Shown: positions 8,237 to 21,907 of the stretch, piece by piece | How the letters are laid out: every line of letters begins with the position of its first letter | How positions within the stretch are numbered: the first letter of the stretch is position 1 | NCBI GenBank assembly: GCA_050485685.1 | Contig: JBJHBW010000006.1 | Coordinates: 25,073 to 89,072, forward strand | Source: Gammaproteobacteria bacterium | GTDB lineage: Bacteria > Pseudomonadota > Gammaproteobacteria > Steroidobacterales > Rariloculaceae | DNA: 64,000 bases | Direction of reading: 5' to 3' | Position numbers and translations under genes: made by a program | Notes under the pieces: model-generated | Database searches by the model: none | What the model was told of the DNA's origin: nothing | The model's input: only the letters and a program-made list of their open reading frames with translations

Positions 8237-9211
8237 TCAGAATATGGAGCCGAAGAACATACGGATGCCACGGCCGTTGGTCGATTCCCGGATCGCAATG
8301 CCGACCCGGTCCAGCGGGAAACCGAGAATCCTGAACGGTTCGCTGCGTCCGGCGGCGACGCCCACCTCCCACTCGTTGGCGAGGACGCCGGTCCGGCCGT
8401 CAGCGAGTTCGCGGGCATCCACAGTATCGAGATACCAGTCCCCGAGTACATGCGGTATCAAGCGCATCGTGTGCTCACGAAACTCCCAGCGTGGTACGTG
8501 AATATCGAACTCCACGCCACTGGAAATGCGTGACATGGAACGCCGTACACCCCGCTCAGGATCGTATCCGGACCAAAGCAGCCCATTGATCATCGCCGGT
8601 CGCCCCGGTGCGTCGGGCCAGCTGTAGCGGCTGCGTATGCCCACCGCGTAGATCAGCGCATCTTCACGAGTCTCGTGCTTCTGGATGCCCCAGCCAACCT
8701 GGGCACGCGCACGCAGGGTCCATCTCTCGGAGCGTGGAAATTCAAGTTCCACACCGGGCAGTACACCCAGCTGGCGCGCCTGACGCGGAGGTGCGCCATT
8801 GCCACCCTGGCTGCGGTCGAAGTTTTCCACACCCAGCGTGACGGGCGCGAGCAGCCTGATCGTACAGTTGCACCGCGAGTCCGGATCGGCTGCGCGCAGC
8901 TGCACGCGCACGGGTATACGCACGATCAGCACTTCTGAACCATCGTCAACTGAATACACACCGGTGCCGTAGTTGGCGGCATAGGCCCAGTGAAAGTTTC
9001 CGGCGGCGCCCGTCGCTCCCTGCGCGACCGCCACTGCACCGGCAGTGGGCAGCAGCGAAGTCAGCAGCCAGAGCGCGACGGCGCCAGCCAATGTCGCAGA
9101 GAGAGGGAGCGGAAGCGGCTTAGGGTTCACGGCGGCAGCATACCGGGATTTTTCTTCCCGCTGCACAGCCCGGACCGGCTTCTTGCTGTGAGACCTGCGT
9201 GCCAGCTGCAT
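8237..9211 (-). CDS. hypothetical outer-membrane beta-barrel-like protein
   Basis: Signal-like hydrophobic N-terminus, alternating hydrophobic pattern, and a C-terminal ...RMFFGSIF ending in Phe as in OMPs. No family recognised. Confidence 0.45.
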   Translation of the reverse strand: MQLARRSHSKKPVRAVQREEKSRYAAAVNPKPLPLPLSATLAGAVALWLLTSLLPTAGAVAVAQGATGAAGNFHWAYAANYGTGVYSVDDGSEVLIVRIPVRVQLRAADPDSRCNCTIRLLAPVTLGVENFDRSQGGNGAPPRQARQLGVLPGVELEFPRSERWTLRARAQVGWGIQKHETREDALIYAVGIRSRYSWPDAPGRPAMINGLLWSGYDPERGVRRSMSRISSGVEFDIHVPRWEFREHTMRLIPHVLGDWYLDTVDARELADGRTGVLANEWEVGVAAGRSEPFRILGFPLDRVGIAIRESTNGRGIRMFFGSIF

Positions 9212-11786: not shown

Positions 11787-13433
11787 TCAGGGGGAGAGCT
11801 GCAGTTCCGTGATCTTCAGTGTGCCGGGAATGTAGGTGTCGCGCCGGTAGCTGCCGACCCAGATATCATACTGGCCCTCAGCGGGACTGCTGATCACGAC
11901 CATGGGATCGAGCGTACCCATGCGCGCATCGTCGTTGCATGACCAGCTGCCGTCCGGGCGATTGACGATCAGTGTTGCGTCGCCGTCATCATCGGCCTCA
12001 AAGAAGATGCGCAGCTCTGACGAGCGCCCGCGCCAGTGCAGGCGGAGATCCGGCGCACTGGCCGCATGGCCCACACACTGATTGCCGAGATCGGAGACGT
12101 CTATCGGTCCGCCGGCCACGATGGTTGCGGTACTCGGATCGGGCGTGAAGCCGGCACGCAGCGTGACGGTGCCGAAATAGGGGTCGCGGGAGAAGTCCAG
12201 ACTGCCGCGGTCCATCGTTGCAGGATCCAGTGACAGTTCGCTGATGTACAGCGTGCCGCTGATGAAGTTGCCGGCGCTGTAGCTGCCCACCCAGATGTCG
12301 TACTGGCCCTGCGCGGGATCGCTGACGATCACCATCGGATCCAGCGTCCCGGGTCCGGCATCGTCATTGCACTGCCAGCTCGCATCGGGCTGGTTGACCA
12401 GCAGCGTGGTGTCCTGGCCGTCATCGGCAACGAACAGTATGCGCAGCTGCGAGGCGCGGCCTGACCAGCTCAGCCGGAAGTCGGGAGGTACGGCGGCGTA
12501 GCCGAGACATTCCCCGCCCAGATAATCGACATGCACCTCACCGCCGCTGATCATTTCAACGCCATGCGGGTCGGGCAGGAAGCCGCTCTCCAGGACCACG
12601 GACCCGAAAGTCGGTGGCTGGGAAAAATCCAGTCGGCCGCCGGCAATCACCGGTGACGTGGTTCCGCCTGCGATCGCGGCACGATCCTCGGACAGTCCCG
12701 CGGCCAGTGCGGCCTGGGCTGCGCCTATCGCGAGTATGCCGCCCAGTCGGCCGCCGGTATGCGTTTCCGTGCGTACGGCGGTCGGGATGCCGACGATCTC
12801 ACCCGCGGCATTGACCGCGAGGCCGCCGCTGTTCCCCGGCGAGATCTGCGCGTCGGTCTGATACCAGACCGGAAGACGTTCGTCCCCCAGCGTGCCGTTG
12901 CGTATGCTCGTCACCGCGCCTTCGGTGTAAGCCAGGAACCCTTCACCGATGGCGGGATAGCCGAAAACGAAGATTCGATCGCCGCGATGGACGTCGGGGT
13001 TAGCCGGAGAGAGAAAGGCGAGATTAATATCTGCGGTGCTGATCGGTTCTCCGGATGCGTCCCGGTCTATCGCAAGGATTGCGAAATCCACATCCCGCGA
13101 GTAGCCGGTCAGTCGGGCGCGATAGCGGCCCACCGGTGTTTCATTGACGTCTTCCAGGATCTCGATCAGGTAATCGTCGCCGTCTTCGATGACATGGCGA
13201 TTCGTGTAGATCACACCGCGAGGGTCCACCACCGTACCGGAACCAGTGGATACTGAAGCACCGCGGTCCAGCGTCACGATACGCACGACGGCTTCGGAAA
13301 TCTGGTCTATCCGTTCGCGCCCCAGACTCTGCGCCGGCGCGTCCAGCGGTATGAGTGGCAGTGCAGCCAGTGCCGAGGCCAGCAGGGCAGGCAGCAGCGC
13401 AGTGAGGCGGGCATGGTGTGAGCGGCGGTTCAT
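11787..13433 (-). CDS. secreted trypsin-like (S1/S1C) serine protease with two tandem C-terminal Cys-pair domains
   Basis: Signal peptide and catalytic triad contexts TNRHVIEDGD (His), DVDFAILAID (Asp), ISPGNSGGLAV (Ser). Followed by two homologous domains of about 140 aa. Confidence 0.8.
   Translation of the reverse strand: MNRRSHHARLTALLPALLASALAALPLIPLDAPAQSLGRERIDQISEAVVRIVTLDRGASVSTGSGTVVDPRGVIYTNRHVIEDGDDYLIEILEDVNETPVGRYRARLTGYSRDVDFAILAIDRDASGEPISTADINLAFLSPANPDVHRGDRIFVFGYPAIGEGFLAYTEGAVTSIRNGTLGDERLPVWYQTDAQISPGNSGGLAVNAAGEIVGIPTAVRTETHTGGRLGGILAIGAAQAALAAGLSEDRAAIAGGTTSPVIAGGRLDFSQPPTFGSVVLESGFLPDPHGVEMISGGEVHVDYLGGECLGYAAVPPDFRLSWSGRASQLRILFVADDGQDTTLLVNQPDASWQCNDDAGPGTLDPMVIVSDPAQGQYDIWVGSYSAGNFISGTLYISELSLDPATMDRGSLDFSRDPYFGTVTLRAGFTPDPSTATIVAGGPIDVSDLGNQCVGHAASAPDLRLHWRGRSSELRIFFEADDDGDATLIVNRPDGSWSCNDDARMGTLDPMVVISSPAEGQYDIWVGSYRRDTYIPGTLKITELQLSP
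11790..12632 (-). repeat. intragenic tandem duplication encoding two ~140-aa domains (about half of residues identical by eye)
   Basis: Copy 1 is LDFSQPPTFGSVVLESGFLPDP...CLGYAAVPPDFRLSWSGRASQLRILFVADD...SWQCNDD...GTLDPMVIVSDPAQGQYDIWVGSY. Copy 2 is LDFSRDPYFGTVTLRAGFTPDP...CVGHAASAPDLRLHWRGRSSELRIFFEADD...SWSCNDD...GTLDPMVVISSPAEGQYDIWVGSY. Confidence 0.8.
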
Positions 13434-13483
13434 TTTGCCAATAGTAGTCCTGCCCGCGGTGTCAGGAAACGACTCGGTTCACA

Positions 13484-14722
13484 TCAGCCGTCACGCAGTC
13501 CCAGCGATGGCTCAAGGCCCGCCACCTTGCGCCCGCCTATGGCGGCGGACAGCGTCGCGGCCGCGAGTGTAATGACGAGCGCCGCGACCAGATGCACGGC
13601 GCGCAACCGGCATATGGGCTGACCGTCTCCTATGTTCGGCGCAAACAGGCCGTTCAATACGGCCTGAACCATGAAGTAAGCCAGAGCGGCCACCGCCCAT
13701 GCGAGCAGTGCAGTGAACGCCGCCTGCAGAATCGGGAACCAGACGATCTGCACTGTGCGAAAGCCGATCAGGCGCAGCACACTGAACTCGCGCTGCTTGC
13801 GGTCTATATTGGCCCAGACAGTGGCAGCGAACGATGCGCAATAGCCTGCAATCGCGATCAGCGCGATGATCCAGTAGGCAATGGCGAGATTGCGGTCCAG
13901 TGTCTGCACCAGGGAAATGTCGGCGACGCTGGTGCGCACTTCGATGTTTTCGTTCAGCATGACCTGACGCAACGTCGCCACATCGTCGATGCTGCGTGCG
14001 TACAGCCGGAATCCGGCGTAGCGTCGCTCCGTGTCACGCGCTGCGCTGCCATCCCATCCCAGCGCCGGCACTGCGCGGCCGTCGAGAAAATCCTCCACGG
14101 CACCAATCAGCGGCACCGACACGAACAGCCCGTCGCGTGCGAACGCGCCCGCCGGCGCAATGCCGACCACTTCCAGCGGTAGCCGCTCCGTCTCCTGGGT
14201 GTCGCGTCGTGTCCGGGTCAGCAGTCCTTCCAGCCGGTCACCGACGTTCACGTTCAGGCGGTCGGCGGCACTGAAGCTGATGACCACGCCGGCCAGTCCC
14301 GACGGTGCAGTTGCCACGCCTGCGAGCGCGGGATCCCCGGTGGCCGACGGAATCAGTTCGACGTCGATGATGCGACCAACGGGGCTTTCCGGTGCGCGCA
14401 GGCGCATGCTGGCTGCGATCGAGCGTGTGCGCGGCACAATGAATTCCACATCGGCACGCGCTTCAAGGGTCGCCAGCCACTGGTTGTCGTAACTGCCGCT
14501 GGCCAGCGGTGTGATCTCGCGGTAGCGGGGATTCTCGACCAGTGGATCCAGCAGGTTGGAAATCAGCCCGTACTTCAGACCGAACAGCACCAGCAGCGGA
14601 ATCAGCACGGCGGCCAGAGCCAGCACGGAGCAGGCGGAAATCACCCACTCGTGGCGATAGTCACCGAAGGCAAGTCTGGTGATCAGCTGTGATCGTGACG
14701 GTGCCACGCTGGTGTCAGGCAT
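13484..14722 (-). CDS. ABC transporter permease, FtsX/MacB-type (4 TM with large periplasmic domain)
   Basis: TM1, then a periplasmic region of about 230 aa, then three C-terminal TMs with an FtsX-like loop (REFSVLRLIGF). Its start overlaps the ATPase stop by 8 nt. Confidence 0.8.
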   Translation of the reverse strand: MPDTSVAPSRSQLITRLAFGDYRHEWVISACSVLALAAVLIPLLVLFGLKYGLISNLLDPLVENPRYREITPLASGSYDNQWLATLEARADVEFIVPRTRSIAASMRLRAPESPVGRIIDVELIPSATGDPALAGVATAPSGLAGVVISFSAADRLNVNVGDRLEGLLTRTRRDTQETERLPLEVVGIAPAGAFARDGLFVSVPLIGAVEDFLDGRAVPALGWDGSAARDTERRYAGFRLYARSIDDVATLRQVMLNENIEVRTSVADISLVQTLDRNLAIAYWIIALIAIAGYCASFAATVWANIDRKQREFSVLRLIGFRTVQIVWFPILQAAFTALLAWAVAALAYFMVQAVLNGLFAPNIGDGQPICRLRAVHLVAALVITLAAATLSAAIGGRKVAGLEPSLGLRDG

Positions 14723-15641
14723 CGCACACCCTTGATGTCATGGCTTGCGGGCCGGTGAGTTCGGTTTCGTGTCGCAGGATTCGAAAGCCCGCGTTCTTTA
14801 CCAGGTCATGCGCGTGGGTGGCGACGATCAGTGTGACGCCAAGCTCCGATGTGAGCTCGGCCAGCAGATTCACAATACGCTGTGCATTGACCGGATCGAT
14901 CGCGGCCGTGGGCTCATCGGCGATCACGACAGGCGGATCATGCGCGAGCGCACGTGCGATGCCTGCACGCTGGCGCTGTCCGACCGACAGTTCGCCCGGC
15001 CGCTTGTTCAGCTGCTGTGCAATGCCAAGCCTTTCAGCGAGCCGGTCAGCGCTGTCATCGTCCGGCAGTCTGAGCAGCTGTCGTGGCAACTCAATGTTCG
15101 AGCGCACACTGAGGTAGGGCAGCAGGCCGCCGTGCTGCAGCACGTAGCCCAGATAACGGCTGCGCAGCGCCGCCAGCCGGTCAGCATCGCGTCTTGCCCA
15201 CAGTTCCAGCACGGGCCAGACCGTGCCCGGTGCCAATCCGGATCCGGTCCCCGTGTCCGCATCCGCAGCCTCGGGCATGAAATCGAATTCGTCACCGCGA
15301 TCGGGTCTCAATACCATGGCGAGCATTTCCAGCAGCGTGCTCTTGCCTGAGCCGCTCTCGCCGGTGAGAGCGATGGTTGCGCCGCGTTCAATCTGCAGCT
15401 GAGCAACCTGCAGGCGAAAACTGGTGCCCGCGGCGCTGAAGGACTTTTCGACGTTACGCAGCCGGAAAACCGCGTCGGCGCTCAGGGCAATGCCTCCAGC
15501 AGCAGGGGATAGACCGAGTCGCCATCGACGGGGCCGCCGTCCAGCGAAACCCAGAGATCCAGGTTGTCGTGCAGTGCGCGATAGTAGGCGACCTTGCTGT
15601 CGAGCTGATTGATGAACTCGAACTGCTGTTGAGCAGTCCAT
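14715..15641 (-). CDS. ABC transporter ATP-binding protein (MacB/LolD/FtsE-like)
   Basis: Walker A GESGSGKST, Q-loop, signature LSVGQRQR, Walker B VVIADEPT, H-loop ATH. The conserved core starts near FRLRNVEKSF (about 15470). The only canonical start in frame is ATG 15641, which overlaps the upstream gene by 160 nt, so the start is uncertain. Confidence 0.8.
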   Translation of the reverse strand: MDCSTAVRVHQSARQQGRLLSRTARQPGSLGFAGRRPRRWRLGLSPAAGGIALSADAVFRLRNVEKSFSAAGTSFRLQVAQLQIERGATIALTGESGSGKSTLLEMLAMVLRPDRGDEFDFMPEAADADTGTGSGLAPGTVWPVLELWARRDADRLAALRSRYLGYVLQHGGLLPYLSVRSNIELPRQLLRLPDDDSADRLAERLGIAQQLNKRPGELSVGQRQRAGIARALAHDPPVVIADEPTAAIDPVNAQRIVNLLAELTSELGVTLIVATHAHDLVKNAGFRILRHETELTGPQAMTSRVCDA

Positions 15642-17485
15642 TGCTGCCAGGTGCCAAGATCGATGTTCATGACTTCGCTGTGATACGGCAGGTCTTCCAT
15701 ATACTCGCGCATGTAGCCCAGTTCCGCCAGCGTCGTCCCGTCACCGGTAACGGTCTGCGCCGCTTCCGGATCCCTACTGATGATCGCGGCAAGGCTGCGC
15801 AGTTCGTTGAGGAATCCATGTGGCGCCAGTGCGCCTTCTTCGGCGCGGTCCAGGATGCGCCGCAGCAGGTCATGAAGATCGCTGAGCTGGTCCCGGGTGA
15901 GCAGCACGCGCACGTCAACGGATCGTTCTGCCGGTGCTTCCGGGTCGCGATCGAGCATATAGGCATTGAACAGCAGCGGCGCTGCTTCATCGTCGGCAGC
16001 TTCGCGCAGATACTGCATGCGCAGCGCATAGCCCAGCCGTGCGACACGCTCCTGGAACGAAGCCAGACCTTCACTGTCCGGCAGCGGTGCCGCGCCGGCC
16101 TGCAGCGGCTGGAAGCCGGCCGCGGCCGAAGCCACCTGTGTGGTCAGCTGATCCATCATGGCACGCAGTGCTGCACCGAAATCGCCGACGTCACCGGCTT
16201 CCACGCCGTGATAGAAAGTACCCACGTCCGCGATGTGTGCCAGTTCCCGATAGTGACGCTCGGCGTAGTCATGGTTTTCGTTACGTGCGCCCGATGCGGT
16301 CTTCAGATGGATGACCCAGGGGGCAATGCCATTGGACAGCAACCTGTCGCGCACCTGGGCGGTGGACAGGCCGGTGGTTGAGAGCGGATCGTCGGCCAGG
16401 CGCGGGCCGGCGTCGGTGATCAGAATCGCGTAACGGGCGAAATGCCCGTCCCATGAGATGTCGTCTACCGCCTGCACGAGACCGGCGAACGGATCCTCGT
16501 TGAAGTCGCGGCTGGAGACATTGGTTTCGCGCACACTGGCTACCGCGCGCATGAAGTCCTGGCCGCTGCCGGTGAGGTCGGTCACGACGCGGGATACATA
16601 CTCAAGGCCGGGTACCGCGTCAGTGTTGTCCCTGAACGTGACCACGCCGTAAGACACGCGGTCCGACAGCCCCGCAGCATCGATCTGTTCATAGACATCA
16701 CGCATGATTTCACGCGTGCGTTCAATATAGGGCTGCATGGATATCGTCGTGTCGATCACGAACACGATGCCGGCACGATACGGATCGCGATCGCGCGCAA
16801 ACTGCAGTGGCACGCTGGCCACTTCGAGCAGGCGAGCCTGGTCGTTGCCGACCAGCACGTCCTCATGGCCGAGTATAGGCACCAGATAGAAATTGCGACG
16901 AATGTCTATGAAGGTGTCGGGCTGGATCGCAGCGATCGCCGTACCTGCTACGTCGCCTTCCAGCGCGCGTTCGCGCAGCGCGCGGTAGGCTGCGACGTCA
17001 TTGCTTTCAGCAAGTTGGTACAGGGTATCGCGGTCATCGAACAGCAGGACCCGCGGCTGGCGCTCGGGATCCTTGAAGCCCACGGTCAGCGTCTGACGCC
17101 AGGTCACGCCGTGTTCATCGGCGAGCCAGCCGCGCTGGTCGCCACGACTGTCCAGGCCCACACGCAGCCATTCGCGGCCATCCACGGTGCGGCGTTCGTA
17201 GACATAGAAAACGGTGAATGGCGTGATCGCCTGCACGACCCGTCCGCCGGCCGATTCGGCAATGCCGGCACCGGGAACCGCGATCACACGCTGGTACAGC
17301 GTTTCCTTGCCTTCCAGTGTCAGGGGGCGCTGTGCCTGCGCCATGGCCGCACCAGCCGTGAACAGGCCACCCGAGATGACCGCAAAGAGGGCGAGCAGGA
17401 CCACAGCGGCTTGCCGCACAGGCGCGGCCTGGTTCGTCTCAGGTATGCCTGCCAGGCGGATTGCTGTCGTTACGTTCCGTTTCAT
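15482..17485 (-). CDS. secreted/periplasmic von Willebrand factor A (vWA) domain protein
   Basis: Signal/anchor (VVLLALFAVISGGLFTAGAAMAQA) and a central vWA fold with a MIDAS-like motif (GIVFVIDTTISM ... ILITDAG). Long N- and C-terminal regions of unknown fold. Start set at MKRNVTT, 4 nt after the upstream stop. Confidence 0.75.
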   Translation of the reverse strand: MKRNVTTAIRLAGIPETNQAAPVRQAAVVLLALFAVISGGLFTAGAAMAQAQRPLTLEGKETLYQRVIAVPGAGIAESAGGRVVQAITPFTVFYVYERRTVDGREWLRVGLDSRGDQRGWLADEHGVTWRQTLTVGFKDPERQPRVLLFDDRDTLYQLAESNDVAAYRALRERALEGDVAGTAIAAIQPDTFIDIRRNFYLVPILGHEDVLVGNDQARLLEVASVPLQFARDRDPYRAGIVFVIDTTISMQPYIERTREIMRDVYEQIDAAGLSDRVSYGVVTFRDNTDAVPGLEYVSRVVTDLTGSGQDFMRAVASVRETNVSSRDFNEDPFAGLVQAVDDISWDGHFARYAILITDAGPRLADDPLSTTGLSTAQVRDRLLSNGIAPWVIHLKTASGARNENHDYAERHYRELAHIADVGTFYHGVEAGDVGDFGAALRAMMDQLTTQVASAAAGFQPLQAGAAPLPDSEGLASFQERVARLGYALRMQYLREAADDEAAPLLFNAYMLDRDPEAPAERSVDVRVLLTRDQLSDLHDLLRRILDRAEEGALAPHGFLNELRSLAAIISRDPEAAQTVTGDGTTLAELGYMREYMEDLPYHSEVMNIDLGTWQQWTAQQQFEFINQLDSKVAYYRALHDNLDLWVSLDGGPVDGDSVYPLLLEALP

Positions 17486-17489
17486 GATG

Positions 17490-18035
17490 TCATCGTGCCC
17501 ATTGCAACAGCAGCCGCTCGGCACTCTCGTCGCCGCGGGCTGCCGCTTCTTCTGCCCACGCCTGCAGGGCGCTCAGGCGTGCTGAGGCCTCTGCCACGCC
17601 CTGCTCATGGGCAACGGTGTACCAGCGGTATGCCTGGAACGCATCAGCGTCGGGCAGCAGGCTGGTCTCGGGAGAGTGATGGTTGGGGTCGTTCATCGTC
17701 GCCAGCGCGAAGGCCGATGGCCCATGGTCGTTGCGGGCGGCGAAGAACAGCAGCAGCTGCGCATCGGCGAGCTGTCCGTCGCTCTGGAATGTCTGGGCGC
17801 TCTCAAACGCGGTTTCGTAATCGACCGCGTCGGCACTGCCTAACTGGTCCAGCAGTTCGCGAGCGTCCTGCGCCCGTTCCGGTCCCGTGATAGGTTCCAG
17901 CACGGGCCCCGGCGCAGGCTGATCGCTGCGCAGGACGAGATAAAGCCCCACGCCGATCACCAGTACCGCGGCGGCGATCACGCCGCCTGTCACCACCTGC
18001 CGCATCGCATCCGTTCGTTGATTCGACTTATTCAC
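17490..18035 (-). CDS. single-pass membrane protein with weak Sel1/TPR-like helical repeats
   Basis: GTG start 6 nt after GGAAAGG. TM helix (VVTGGVIAAAVLVIGVGLYLVL). C-terminal AFQAYRWYTVAHEQGVAEASARLSAL resembles a Sel1 repeat. First gene of the module. Confidence 0.45.
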   Translation of the reverse strand: MNKSNQRTDAMRQVVTGGVIAAAVLVIGVGLYLVLRSDQPAPGPVLEPITGPERAQDARELLDQLGSADAVDYETAFESAQTFQSDGQLADAQLLLFFAARNDHGPSAFALATMNDPNHHSPETSLLPDADAFQAYRWYTVAHEQGVAEASARLSALQAWAEEAAARGDESAERLLLQWAR

Positions 18036-18179: not shown

Positions 18180-20162
18180 ATGAAGTCGTCAACGGCACGC
18201 TCCGGAAAGCTGCGCGGACGCCGTCGCCGCCGGTCACGTCTGTTCGCGCCCGTCATCGTGCTGGTGCTGGCTCTGCTGGCGCTGTACGTCGGCGCCGCCA
18301 TGCTGTCAGGGACCTGGCTGGTGGAGCGTGCGATCGCTCGGGTCGAGCTGCAGCGGCCGGAGCTGCGAATCGCCGTGGGCGCCGTGCGGGTGCAGCCGTT
18401 CACATGGCGCGTACGCCTGACTGACGTTCAGGTGAGCGACAGCAGCAGCGGTGAGTTTCTGGAAGCGCCGGTGATCACCGCGTTCCTGCATCCGGACTCT
18501 CTGATAACCGGCGTGATCCGGCTCACTCGGGTGGCAGTCCCTGAACCCGCAATGGCCCTCAGGATCGGGTCAGCTGCGCAGCCGGGCGCCGCCGCCGGCC
18601 CAGGCGCTGCCACGCGTGCGTTCGATCCTGTGAGGCGTCTGCAACGTCTGGCGAGATTGCGGATCGACCAGTTGTCGGTTGAAGACGGCAAAGTGATGCC
18701 GTTGCCGGTCACGCCTGAAGCAGCCGGTGACGCGGGCGGCCGGGCAGGTGATCCCGGTGCCTTGGCGCTGGCTACGTTCAATCTTTCAGCGACATCCTGG
18801 CCGCCTGCCTCAGGGGCGCCTGCGCCGTGGACATTCGACCTCAGGCCGGCGTCCGGCGGCCGGATTGCGGTCACTGGCGATGCGATGACCGGCGAGACTC
18901 TGGCGCGTGGTCGCGTGCAGCTGTCGGGTATGGAGCCTGCGGTACTGGCCGGCATGGCGGTGTTGGCGGGCGATCTGCAGCGCCTGGCAGAGCTGGCCGG
19001 TACCGTGGACGTCACCGGAGAGTTTCGCGCCGTGACAGGATCTGCACGATCCGCCGCTCACATCGTGACGGATCTGGACCTTCGCGGTCACCTGGCGGCG
19101 GCCGGCCCCGTGACCATGTCGCTGACACTGGATTCGGCCGATGCGGGAGGCCCGGCTTTCCTCTGGCTTCAGCTGCATGAGGTGCCATCGTCTCTTGTGT
19201 CCCGATACACCGAACACTTGTTCGGACTTGCGGCCGAATCTCATGGTGCCGAACTGACCTGGCAGTATCGGCGCGAGCAGAATCGCCTGGACGGACAGTT
19301 GGACCTCACTGTGCGCGATCTTGTACTCGCGGCGCCCGATGATGGTGCCATGGCGCTGAATACGGATCCGGCGCTGACGGTTGCGTTGCTGCGCGACGCC
19401 GATGGCACGATCGCGCTGACGGTTCCGGTGGAGTCGCCAGTCGACGCGCGCACACAGGCTGTGGCGCTGACGGATCGGTCCCTGCAGACGCTGCTTGCCC
19501 GCCTGCCGGCATCGCCGTTCAATGCGCTTGCGGAGTTGTCCGGCCAGCACGCGCTGGACGAGACGCTGCGATTCGTGCCCGGCGACGTGGCGCCGATCGC
19601 GAGTGCCGAGCAGACAGTGCGCGCGCTGGCTGTCGCACTGCGGTTGCGGCCGGGCGTCGGGCTCGAGCTGACGGCGCCGTTCGATCCTGAGCTCGATCGC
19701 CAGAACCTGGCGATCAGACAGGTGGAACTGCATGTGACGCTGGCCACCGCAGCGGCGGAGTTCGGCGCACGGGCAGCGGAACTCGATTTCGCGTCGCCAC
19801 GCGTTCACGATGTGCTCGAGGAATTCGCCGGCGAGCGGCTGGAAGCGGGGGCGCTTGGCCGGCTGCGCATGCGCTTCGGTTTCGAGGCGGCTCAGGTGCC
19901 TTCCGGCGCGCCGGTCGCATACTACCGGGCGCTGTTCGATGCGCTTGCGGCCAACGAGCGTATCGAGGATGCCGCGCTGACGCGGCTGGCGCGATTTCGC
20001 GCGCAGTCGATCATTGCCTTGTTGAGCGCCGAAGGCATAGATGGAGAGCGTCTGTTGACGCTGCCGGCGGCTCCGGTGCCGGCGCAGGACCGGCAATGGT
20101 TCTACGTGCCAGGCCCGATGAGACTGTTCGCGGCCGGCATCGATGCTCCTGACAGGGACTGA
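18180..20162 (+). CDS. large membrane-anchored hypothetical protein (possibly DUF748/AsmA-like)
   Basis: Arg-rich N-terminus plus one TM, then about 600 aa of Ala/Leu-rich periplasmic sequence. Coding composition is good but the family assignment is only a guess. Confidence 0.4.
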   Translation: MKSSTARSGKLRGRRRRRSRLFAPVIVLVLALLALYVGAAMLSGTWLVERAIARVELQRPELRIAVGAVRVQPFTWRVRLTDVQVSDSSSGEFLEAPVITAFLHPDSLITGVIRLTRVAVPEPAMALRIGSAAQPGAAAGPGAATRAFDPVRRLQRLARLRIDQLSVEDGKVMPLPVTPEAAGDAGGRAGDPGALALATFNLSATSWPPASGAPAPWTFDLRPASGGRIAVTGDAMTGETLARGRVQLSGMEPAVLAGMAVLAGDLQRLAELAGTVDVTGEFRAVTGSARSAAHIVTDLDLRGHLAAAGPVTMSLTLDSADAGGPAFLWLQLHEVPSSLVSRYTEHLFGLAAESHGAELTWQYRREQNRLDGQLDLTVRDLVLAAPDDGAMALNTDPALTVALLRDADGTIALTVPVESPVDARTQAVALTDRSLQTLLARLPASPFNALAELSGQHALDETLRFVPGDVAPIASAEQTVRALAVALRLRPGVGLELTAPFDPELDRQNLAIRQVELHVTLATAAAEFGARAAELDFASPRVHDVLEEFAGERLEAGALGRLRMRFGFEAAQVPSGAPVAYYRALFDALAANERIEDAALTRLARFRAQSIIALLSAEGIDGERLLTLPAAPVPAQDRQWFYVPGPMRLFAAGIDAPDRD

Positions 20163-20244
20163 CGCGGCTCGTGAGAAATTCGATCCGCTTCGGGATAATA
20201 CCCGGCGCGCTGCAGGCGCCCTTGAATCCGCAACGGGACTTTCC

Positions 20245-20529
20245 ATGCAAGAAAAATCTGATCGCATCATCGTCACGGTCATAGGCCAGGACCGGGTCGG
20301 CATCATTGCCGGTGTGTCTACGGTGCTGGCCGATGCCGGCGTCAATATCGTGGATATCTCGCAGACCACGCTGCGCGAGTTCTTCACGATGATCCTGATG
20401 GCCGATCTCGGTGGTGCCGACATACGATTCGATGAGCTCAAGCAGCGGCTCGCGGCGCTAGGCGAGGAGCTGGGTGTGCGCATCGATGTGCAGCACGAAG
20501 ACGTGTTCAAGTTCATGCATCGCGTCTGA
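20245..20529 (+). CDS. ACT domain-containing protein (UPF0237 family)
   Basis: The 94-aa sequence [34 protein letters not shown]...FTMILMADL is the typical ACT fold. It is the conserved partner of UPF0210. Confidence 0.75.
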
Positions 20530-20539
20530 GGCCGGTACC

Positions 20540-21907
20540 GTGACATCCCGCTACTCGTCTCAGGAAATTCTCGAAACCATCCGTATGGTGCAGATGGAGC
20601 ACCTGGATATACGCACCATTACGATGGGCATCAGTCTTCGCGATTGTTCCGGTGCGAATGCGCAGCAGGTTGCGGAACGGGTGTACGAGAAGGTCTGTTC
20701 CCGTGCATCCCGGCTGGTTGACATCGGCAAGGAAATAGAGCGTGATTACGGCATTCCGGTCATCAATACGCGCATCTCGGTGACACCGGTTGCGCTGATA
20801 GCCGAGACCGGCGGCGAGGATGGGTACCTGGCCATTGCAGCGGCGCTGGACAAGGCGGCCGGCGAGGTCGGCGTGAATTTCATCGGCGGCTATTCGGCGC
20901 TGGTGCACAAGGGGATGACACCCGGCGATACAGCGCTGATCCGCTCCATACCCGAAGCGCTTGCAACAACCGAGCGGGTCTGTTCATCCGTGAATGTCGG
21001 CACCACGCGCGCCGGCATCAACATGGATGCAGTCGCCGAAATGGGGCAGGTGGTGGTCGCGACGGCCAGGCGCACCGCGGACCGCGATGGTCTGGGCTGC
21101 GCGAAGCTGGTCGTGTTCTGCAATGCTGTTGAAGACAACCCGTTCATGGCCGGTGCGTTTCACGGCATAGGTGAACCGGATACGGTGCTGAACGTAGGCG
21201 TGAGCGGGCCGGGCGTCGTGGCCAGCGCGATGGAGAAGGAACCGGATGCCGACTTCGGACGCCTGGCCAGCGTGATCAAGCACACTGCGTTCAAGGTGAC
21301 ACGCATGGGCGAGCTGGTTGGACGCGAAGCTTCGCGGCGGCTGGGCTTTCCTTTCGGCATCGTCGATGTATCGCTGGCGCCGACGCCGGCCGAAGGTGAC
21401 AGCGTGGCGCGCATACTCGAGACCATGGGTCTGGAGCGGGTCGGCACGCATGGTTCCACGGCCGCGCTGGCGATGCTGAACGATGCCGTCAAGAAGGGCG
21501 GGGCGATGGCATCCAGCCACGTGGGCGGACTGTCGGGTGCTTTCATTCCGCTGTCCGAGGATGCGCGCATGATCGAGGCGGCGGAGATCGGAGCGATTTC
21601 GTTCGATAAGCTGGAAGCCATGACGGCAGTGTGTTCGGTGGGCCTGGACATGATTGCCGTGCCCGGCGACACCAGTGCGGCCACCATTGCCGCGATCATC
21701 GCTGACGAAGCTGCGATCGGCATGATCAACAACAAGACCACGGCGGTACGCGTCATACCAGCGCCGGGCAGGCAGGTCGGTGACACCGTGGAATTCGGTG
21801 GACTGCTGGGGCATGCGCCGGTCATCGCCGTCAACCGATACTCGTCGGCCGCATTCATTGCCCGCGGCGGGCGCATACCGGCGCCGATACAGGCACTGGG
21901 TAACTGA
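20540..21907 (+). CDS. PFL-like UPF0210 (DUF711) family protein
   Basis: N-terminus [30 protein letters not shown] matches the UPF0210 signature. About 455 aa. GTG start 11 nt after the ACT gene stop. Confidence 0.8.

Follow-up and report, generated by a model that had tools for sequence, protein, structure and literature searches.

In Pseudomonas, the TagQRST-PpkA system reacts to damage of the outer membrane by polymyxin, EDTA, depletion of BamA or LptD, or attack by a type VI (T6SS) or type IV (T4SS) secretion system (PMC6657622, PMC7817224). TagT and TagS are an ATP-binding cassette (ABC) complex of the inner membrane with ATPase activity (PMC6657622, PMC7817224), and the extracellular part of PpkA is regarded as a von Willebrand factor A (vWA) sensor domain that interacts with TagR (PMC3224232). 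The signal that TagQRST-PpkA senses upon outer-membrane damage in Pseudomonas is still unknown (PMC7817224). Homologues of tagQRST and ppkA also adjoin srfABC in genomes without a T6SS (PMC3608642), and a "Lol-like ABC + vWA + SUMF1" cassette is reported to flank srfABC, whose product SrfA is a kinase-like, transmembrane (TM), lipocalin protein (bioRxiv 10.64898/2026.09.18.752743). Here, a run of five genes on the minus strand of a 64-kb stretch of gammaproteobacterial DNA (the window, meaning the whole stretch analysed) is compared with these systems.

The comparison reveals a conserved unit of four genes, which encode a small Sel1-type anchor protein, a vWA protein, a TagT-like ATPase and a TagS-like permease. 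The composition of this unit and its homology are held with high confidence. That the unit, a stand-alone and kinase-less relative of the TagTS-PpkA sensor, acts as an ATP-driven envelope module by the mechanism proposed below is given about an even chance. A sequence-only reading of the window had not recognised the combination as a described system; this view has to be revised, as the three central genes match PpkA, TagT and TagS and a cassette of this kind has been noted beside srfABC. No description of a stand-alone, kinase-less form with a Sel1 anchor and without TagR and TagQ was found in the literature.

Homology with PpkA, TagT and TagS

The order of the vWA, ABC ATPase and FtsX-type permease genes in the window is the order of PpkA, TagT and TagS, which belong to the TagQRST-PpkA-Fha1-PppA threonine phosphorylation pathway of the Pseudomonas H1-T6SS. 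In the T6SS locus of P. protegens, the genes run Fha-TssJ-TssK-TssL-TssM-TagF-PppA-PpkA, and behind them come genes for an ABC ATPase, an FtsX permease, an FGE-sulfatase protein and a lipoprotein. This tail of the locus is the known TagT-TagS-TagR-TagQ arrangement, in which TagR is periplasmic and TagQ is located in the outer membrane. Residues 52-667 of the vWA protein align with residues 405-1027 of P. protegens PpkA at 36% identity (blastp, E 3e-111), and residues 49-667 align with residues 409-1028 of the family representative P0170 (E 8e-97), a Pseudomonas PpkA that is 71-82% identical to the named PpkA proteins of P. chlororaphis and P. protegens. The ABC ATPase is 48% identical to TagT of P. 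protegens (E 9e-66), compared with 33% for LolD, 31% for MacB and 29% for FtsE of E. coli. Similarly, the permease shares 44% identity with P. protegens TagS along its full length (405 aa aligned, E 2e-93 to 3e-94), compared with 21% for E. coli LolC (E 0.7). By sequence and gene order, each of the three central genes thus has a specific homologue, in collinear position, in the PpkA sensor region, TagT or TagS. The vWA protein is homologous to all of the periplasmic part of PpkA, but carries a signal peptide and is made in secreted form.

A comparison of the two systems also reveals clear differences. PpkA has a kinase domain and a TM tether, whereas the vWA protein of the window has a signal peptide in their place, and the window contains an additional Sel1-repeat anchor that is not found in the T6SS locus of P. 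protegens. Residues of the metal-ion-dependent adhesion site (MIDAS) type and a C-terminal ...LP tail are common to PpkA and the vWA protein. The window shares with TagQRST-PpkA the sensor region of PpkA and the adjacent TagT and TagS genes, but not the kinase, TagR and TagQ, or the linkage to a T6SS.

Conservation of the four-gene unit

The comparison set consists of 87 related loci, namely L001-L005, L094 and L095, obtained by exact-protein look-ups, and L006-L085, which represent one genome per GTDB species and were located with a 10-sequence alignment of the vWA family (A2). Counts over 85 loci refer to L001-L085, which were queried with the window proteins. The view per related locus is approximately 20 kb (10 kb around), and the source genome is represented by the 64-kb window. 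The carriers include Woeseiaceae, Sedimenticolaceae, Candidatus Thiodiazotropha, Chromatiaceae, Arenicellales and many unnamed Gammaproteobacteria, and the vWA protein of the window is 44%-91% identical to those of the related loci.

Almost all of the 87 loci have the Sel1, vWA, ABC and FtsX genes in collinear arrangement. In every one of the 85 loci, the vWA gene is directly preceded by a gene for a homologue of the small protein, and the ABC gene follows directly downstream, in the same order and on the same strand, in 83. The permease gene is present in 81 of the 85, and two of the four misses are contig ends (L007 and L053); two loci (L073 and L082) lack the ABC pair, and in L078 the pair is inverted. 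Clustering of the neighbouring open reading frames (ORFs) within 3.5 kb upstream and downstream at the 85 loci yielded no further widely conserved neighbour: the additional genes are clade-specific, the widest being a divergent DUF748 gene at 22 loci, and no other same-strand gene is conserved downstream. The conserved unit is thus four genes, and these stay together across many gammaproteobacterial lineages. The sequence-only reading had described a five-gene module and proposed neighbourhood conservation as its check; the Sel1, vWA, ABC and FtsX genes do co-occur, but the S1 protease gene is found only in the window, L005 and L094, so that four genes remain of the five.

In L073 and L082, unrelated genes come after the vWA gene, and those of L073 include CheW-like and CheB-like ORFs, as read from the sequences. 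A search with PADLOC gave generic ABC/AAA and trypsin-domain matches only, and an anti-phage defence system was rejected as a candidate.

Absence of kinase and T6SS genes

The tblastn search with the PpkA kinase domain gave no match in the window or at the 85 loci, and no Pfam Pkinase domain is present in the vWA protein. PppA, Fha, TssJ, TssK, TssL, TssM and TagF are likewise absent from the 64-kb window and from the 10 kb around the unit at the 85 loci. With the P. protegens queries, TagR and TagQ gave no tblastn match in the window and, at the 85 loci, a single weak and distant TagR match (L064); the absence of TagQ is less certain because TagQ is short and of low complexity.

These absences bear on the possibility that the four proteins sense damage and signal in trans to a kinase, a T6SS or another effector encoded elsewhere. 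The only tested role of the homologues of the PpkA sensor, TagT and TagS is the post-translational activation of a T6SS (PMC6657622, PMC7817224), and signalling recurs in the family, in the form of kinase and AAA_22 fusions and of the pairing with kinase-like SrfA (bioRxiv 10.64898/2026.09.18.752743). However, a cytoplasmic domain able to pass a signal inward is absent from all four proteins, the ABC ATPase being the sole cytoplasmic part and the Sel1 protein having approximately 6 cytoplasmic residues, and no T6SS, kinase, phosphatase or FHA gene is present in the 64-kb window or within 10 kb at the 85 loci. Additionally, the host-associated Deltaproteobacteria with tag/ppkA homologues mostly have no T6SS genes (PMC3608642). 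A regulator acting in trans is accordingly considered quite unlikely, and a module that acts without an inward signal is preferred.

The vWA protein and its family

The vWA protein begins with a signal peptide (h-region 26-44, AMA-QA) and is predicted to be secreted. It comprises a β-rich N-terminal domain (~55-225), the vWA domain (~238-455) and a C-terminal helical or mixed domain (~470-667). The match to Pfam VWA is weak (1e-3, under the gathering score), and a sequence search of the PDB returned no matches; the AlphaFold2 (AF2) model, with a predicted local distance difference test (pLDDT) score of 73, matches the integrin β-I and SpaC vWA domains at E 7e-9. The MIDAS-type residues D245, S249 and D358 are invariant across the family, and the first motif, D245-T-T-I-S249, is a DxTxS variant of the canonical DxSxS.

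At E<=1e-3, the family comprises 1320 representative clusters, of which 453 reach E<=1e-30, and almost all align over residues ~40-667. Members of approximately 1000 aa account for 5 of the 150 top clusters; two of them (P0141 and P0170) carry an N-terminal Pkinase domain, and one carries AAA_22. In the latter, the metagenomic P0124 (1041 aa), the vWA sensor region is joined to an AAA_22/AAA_16 ATPase domain at the N-terminus, and this fusion is a second kind of cytoplasmic output besides the kinase. Separately, ExeA-like AAA_22 genes are found downstream of the operon in six loci.

Many of the kinase-less members have PpkA as their closest relative. Many of them are named "serine/threonine-protein kinase PpkA" by the Joint Genome Institute (JGI) with no kinase domain present, a label that is a carry-over from the shared sensor region and is misleading.

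Every full-length family member, PpkA included, ends in the C-terminal tail "...[VY]P[VIL]xLxxLP", which is encoded at 15482-15510 of the window. The last three residues are ALP in 120 of 120 close relatives and TLP in 119 of 119 PpkA proteins from Pseudomonas; most of 135 diverse representatives have xLP. This tail may be a docking peptide for TagS or for a TPR/Sel1 partner.

The Sel1-type anchor protein

The start of the small protein at ATG 18005 is favoured over the longer alternatives, as the homologues begin at the MRQ/MNR position (homologue alignment A4). TM prediction places a single N-terminal helix at residues 7-25, behind the ~6 cytoplasmic residues mentioned above, and the helix is followed by a conserved PITGPERA motif and then, after a linker of variable sequence, by the periplasmic Sel1-like domain (approximately 100 aa). 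In the AF2 model (pLDDT 90), helices span residues 63-75, 79-90, 95-105, 122-134, 140-156 and 160-170. The top Foldseek matches in the PDB are Sel1-repeat proteins (6orc, LpnE and LceB), with a probability of 1.0 and weak E values of 0.02-0.1, and no Pfam Sel1 match is obtained at E<=0.01. As modelled, the domain has the paired antiparallel helices of a Sel1/TPR-like solenoid.

The ABC pair

The ABC ATPase (Pfam ABC_tran, 4e-26) retains Walker A (GESGSGKS), the Q-loop, the LSVGQ signature and Walker B (VVIADE). The sole canonical in-frame start (ATG/GTG/TTG) of its ORF is ATG 15641, 160 nt inside the vWA gene, and the similarity to TagT begins near nt 15476, where there is no canonical start codon. 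The gene either overlaps the vWA gene extensively or starts at a non-canonical codon, and its true start is uncertain. In the permease, TM prediction places TM1 at 31-49, a periplasmic loop of ~230 aa at 50-278 and three further TM helices at the C-terminus; Pfam FtsX matches residues 285-405 (6e-10), and no sequence relatives are present in the PDB at E<=0.01.

With an FtsX-type permease of four TM helices, a large periplasmic domain between TM1 and TM2 and intact ATPase motifs, the pair has the type VII ABC architecture. The MacB/FtsEX/Lol-like layout claimed by the sequence-only reading is thus upheld by the Pfam matches, the TM layout and the ATPase motifs. The separate ATPase and four-TM permease are arranged as in the mechanotransducers MacB, LolCDE and FtsEX, and the mechanism of the window pair is probably of the same kind. 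The partners differ: the window has a vWA and a Sel1 protein, whereas partners of the MacA/TolC, LolA/B or EnvC type are absent. Ordinary orthologues of LolCDE, MacB or FtsEX are ruled out, since the permease shares 44% identity with TagS and 21% with LolC.

A related possibility is sorting or export of a Lol-like type, in which the TagTS-like pair would extract the vWA protein or an unlinked lipoprotein from the outer leaflet of the inner membrane and hand it outward, with the vWA and Sel1 proteins serving as cargo or chaperone. The best NCBIfam models for the ATPase are LolD and FtsE, though far under the cut-offs, and the Srf-linked relatives have been read as a simplified LolF-type toxin-processing system (bioRxiv 10.64898/2026.09.18.752743). 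The vWA protein is secreted, vWA domains are frequent in surface adhesins, and SpaC is among the fold matches. However, PpkA fuses the same 620-aa region through a TM helix to a cytoplasmic kinase, which indicates that the region is a resident inner-membrane sensor there and not cargo. Additionally, inspection of the vWA and Sel1 sequences reveals no lipobox cysteine, the permease is just 21% identical to LolC, and neighbour clustering yields no LolA/LolB-like, membrane-fusion or outer-membrane-channel gene conserved beside the operon. Lol-like export is therefore judged unlikely, and a resident sensor or binding protein operated by the ABC pair is favoured for the vWA protein.

The S1 protease gene lies outside the unit

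The protease sequence combines a signal peptide with an H80/D118/S202 triad and a Pfam Trypsin_2 domain (3e-22). Against the PDB, phmmer finds DegQ and DegS at 6e-16 over residues 13-235 only. The trypsin-fold catalytic domain, the H-D-S triad and the signal peptide are shared with HtrA, DegS and DegQ, but these proteins have PDZ domains, whereas the window protease has two tandem domains of ~140 aa in their place and is not assigned to the HtrA group. The two domains (window 11787-12680) are 59% identical to each other (E 1e-62), and for residues 252-548 (297 aa) there is no Pfam family and no PDZ domain.

The distribution of the gene differs from that of the other four. An S1 gene follows the permease in the window, L005 (91% identity) and L094 (89%) and is absent from 85 of the 87 loci, including L095 (82% identity) and all 80 GTDB species loci. 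In L095, the genes directly after the permease gene are the convergent ydjM and traB, the flanking genes of the protease in the window. Elsewhere, the downstream position is occupied by a gene for a 239-aa protein, by nothing on that strand, or by a gene for a Peptidase_C1 protein that lacks a signal peptide, with an AbiEii toxin gene next to it. Conversely, metagenome contigs contain protease homologues of 53-66% identity, in which the C-terminal domain is present once or twice, with no gene of the module within 7 kb. Because synteny fails in both directions, the protease lies outside the conserved unit and a conserved five-gene operon is ruled out; the gene is a recent lineage-specific insertion downstream, which in the window is probably read through from the operon.

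These results weigh on the hypothesis of an FtsEX-like five-gene proteolysis module, in which the ABC pair would control the S1 protease through the vWA and Sel1 proteins as adaptors. The 50-nt distance from the permease gene, the lack of a terminator-like site in between and the adjacency kept in L005 and L094 fit such control, as does the nature of the protease, which is secreted and HtrA-like and belongs to a family tied to envelope stress; a serine protease gene is also found near the Srf-linked locus L088. However, the gene is missing from nearly all loci, its homologues occur without the module, the downstream gene is unrelated in other lineages, and there is no coiled-coil adaptor of the EnvC/PcsB type. 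Compared with FtsEX and its partners EnvC, PcsB and RipC, the window has no conserved partner hydrolase, and Pfam detects no coiled-coil, LytM or CHAP protein in the operon. The partnership of protease and ABC pair, proposed by the sequence-only reading, is consequently not borne out, and control of the protease is very improbable as the function of the unit. In the lineage of the window alone, such control may have arisen by local recruitment.

SrfABC-linked cassettes as a third context

The four-gene core also occurs beside srfABC. In a tblastn search of plasmids, full-length vWA homologues with 38% identity are found on 126 records, 114 of which are from Klebsiella. On plasmids of Klebsiella, Haematospirillum and Cereibacter, the gene order is SrfA-SrfB-SrfC, a protein of ~340 aa, vWA, ABC, permease and a SUMF1-type protein. 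The latter is TagR-like (32% identity to TagR, blastp E 1.5e-50). The ~340-aa protein is matched by the profile of the Sel1 domain of the window in Haematospirillum (L088, 8e-14) and Klebsiella (L086, 3e-6) and is bitopic; its cytoplasmic N-terminal domain spans 150-170 aa and is followed by a TM helix, a Pro/Ala linker and finally the Sel1 domain.

The SrfABC cassette, which is also found in Haemophilus and Xenorhabdus, has the same four-gene core in the same order as the window, with the Sel1 gene just upstream of the vWA gene, and identities to the window of 38% (vWA), 41-42% (ABC) and 38% (FtsX). The cassette adds srfABC upstream and the TagR-like SUMF1 gene and small proteins downstream, whereas the Sel1 protein of the window has no cytoplasmic domain. 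Klebsiella SrfA, SrfB, SrfC and SUMF1 give no tblastn match in the window. One periplasmic core is thus found with varied cytoplasmic couplings, with a kinase or an AAA ATPase as fusion partner or with SrfA and a bitopic Sel1 protein, and in the clade of the window it is coupled to no cytoplasmic part.

The K. pneumoniae plasmid NZ_CP029739.1 (L086) and 113 other Klebsiella plasmids carry a nine-gene cluster that runs from SrfA to SUMF1 and closes with a small protein with a hydrophobic N-terminus. The cluster adjoins a tellurite-resistance gene on large IncFIB-type plasmids. The serine protease gene near L088 lies on the opposite strand.

Proposed mechanism

In the proposed mechanism, TagT- and TagS-like subunits would form a TagT2-TagS2 type VII ABC complex in the inner membrane, in which ATP hydrolysis is converted into movement of the ~230-aa periplasmic domain, as in MacB, LolCDE and FtsEX. 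The vWA protein would be exported by Sec and kept at the surface of the inner membrane by the Sel1 protein, which would substitute for the TM tether of PpkA. There, it may dock on the TagS-like permease, possibly through the invariant C-terminal ...LP tail, and the ABC cycle would toggle its integrin-like MIDAS site between a binding and a releasing state for an envelope ligand. As a kinase or any other inward output is lacking, the action is probably exerted in the envelope itself, as maintenance or as protection when the outer membrane or lipids are damaged. Pseudomonas would have wired this core to the kinase, with TagR and TagQ added, to trigger the T6SS; at Srf-type loci, it would be paired with the bitopic Sel1 protein and kinase-like SrfA. 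Of the mechanotransduction-controlled protease/adhesion module proposed by the sequence-only reading, the mechanotransmission is still the most plausible mechanism, but protease control of the FtsEX-EnvC type lacks the support of synteny.

Several points weigh against this mechanism. The confidence of the vWA model is moderate (pLDDT 73) and is low in the C-terminal domain. The putative contacts between the Sel1 and vWA proteins and between the vWA protein and the TagS-like permease are deduced only from gene linkage. In L073 and L082, the Sel1 and vWA genes are kept with no TagT/TagS-like pair within 10 kb, and since these loci lack an adjacent pair, an ABC pair in cis is not an absolute requirement. 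The genomes, of which 64 kb in the window and ~20 kb per related locus were covered, could encode a T6SS or a separate kinase elsewhere. Finally, in the lineage of the window itself, the protease could have been recruited as an output.

Layout of the locus

The coordinates of the genes are listed in Table 1. The ORF coordinates confirm that the five minus-strand genes are spaced as the sequence-only reading had given them, with a 4-nt gap between the small protein and the vWA protein, an overlap between the vWA and ABC genes, an 8-nt overlap between the ABC and permease genes and a 50-nt gap between the permease and the protease. Its domain calls also hold, through Pfam for ABC_tran, FtsX and Trypsin_2 and through the AF2 models for the vWA and Sel1 folds. 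A terminator scan of the operon, including the gap between permease and protease, found no terminator-like site on the minus strand; promoter and terminator scanning gave no signal above the shuffled expectation, and the transcription units are not settled by the scan.

Table 1. Genes of the operon and of its surroundings in the window
Feature	Position	Strand	Remarks
Sel1-type small anchored protein	17490-18005	-	171 aa from ATG 18005; longer GTG starts at 18035 and 18098
vWA protein	15482-17485	-	667 aa
TagT-like ABC ATPase	14715-15641	-	longest ORF, 308 aa
TagS-like FtsX-type permease	13484-14722	-	412 aa; Pfam FtsX
S1 protease	11787-13433	-	548 aa; Pfam Trypsin_2
DUF748 (AsmA-like) membrane protein	18180-20162	+	Pfam DUF748 7e-44; divergent from operon
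ACT-domain and DUF711 proteins, overlapping gene pair	20143-21907	+	adjoins DUF748 gene
324-aa ORF	8237-9211	-	ends in ...GSIF like an outer-membrane β-barrel protein; no Pfam family

The DUF748 gene is divergent from the operon at 22 loci, all with a vWA identity of at least ~52%, and is absent from more distant loci; a link to outer-membrane lipid homeostasis is tempting. The ACT/DUF711 gene pair is also found in L094 and L095.

Implications for the family

The unit of the 620-aa sensor region of PpkA, TagT and TagS is widespread (1320 representative clusters), most of the closest clusters are kinase-less, and it is known in at least three contexts, T6SS-linked, Srf-linked and stand-alone. 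A tentative and rather unlikely reading of this distribution is that the four-gene operon is the ancestral, self-contained form of TagTS-PpkA, in which a MacB-type ABC motor would switch the Sel1-anchored, integrin-like MIDAS protein so that it captures and removes or repairs a damaged envelope component, the couplings to the T6SS kinase and to SrfABC being later add-ons. Under the same reading, and with as little confidence, the add-ons might read out the activity of the machine by analogy with the histidine kinases that read BceAB-type transporters.

For annotation, the lesson is that family members are often mislabelled as the kinase PpkA without having a kinase domain. The stand-alone form is the smallest version of the unit and thus offers a simpler system in which to identify the MIDAS ligand and the task that the ABC motor performs. 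The distribution of the unit suggests that the "tit-for-tat" damage sensing of the T6SS is built on an older and more widespread envelope module.

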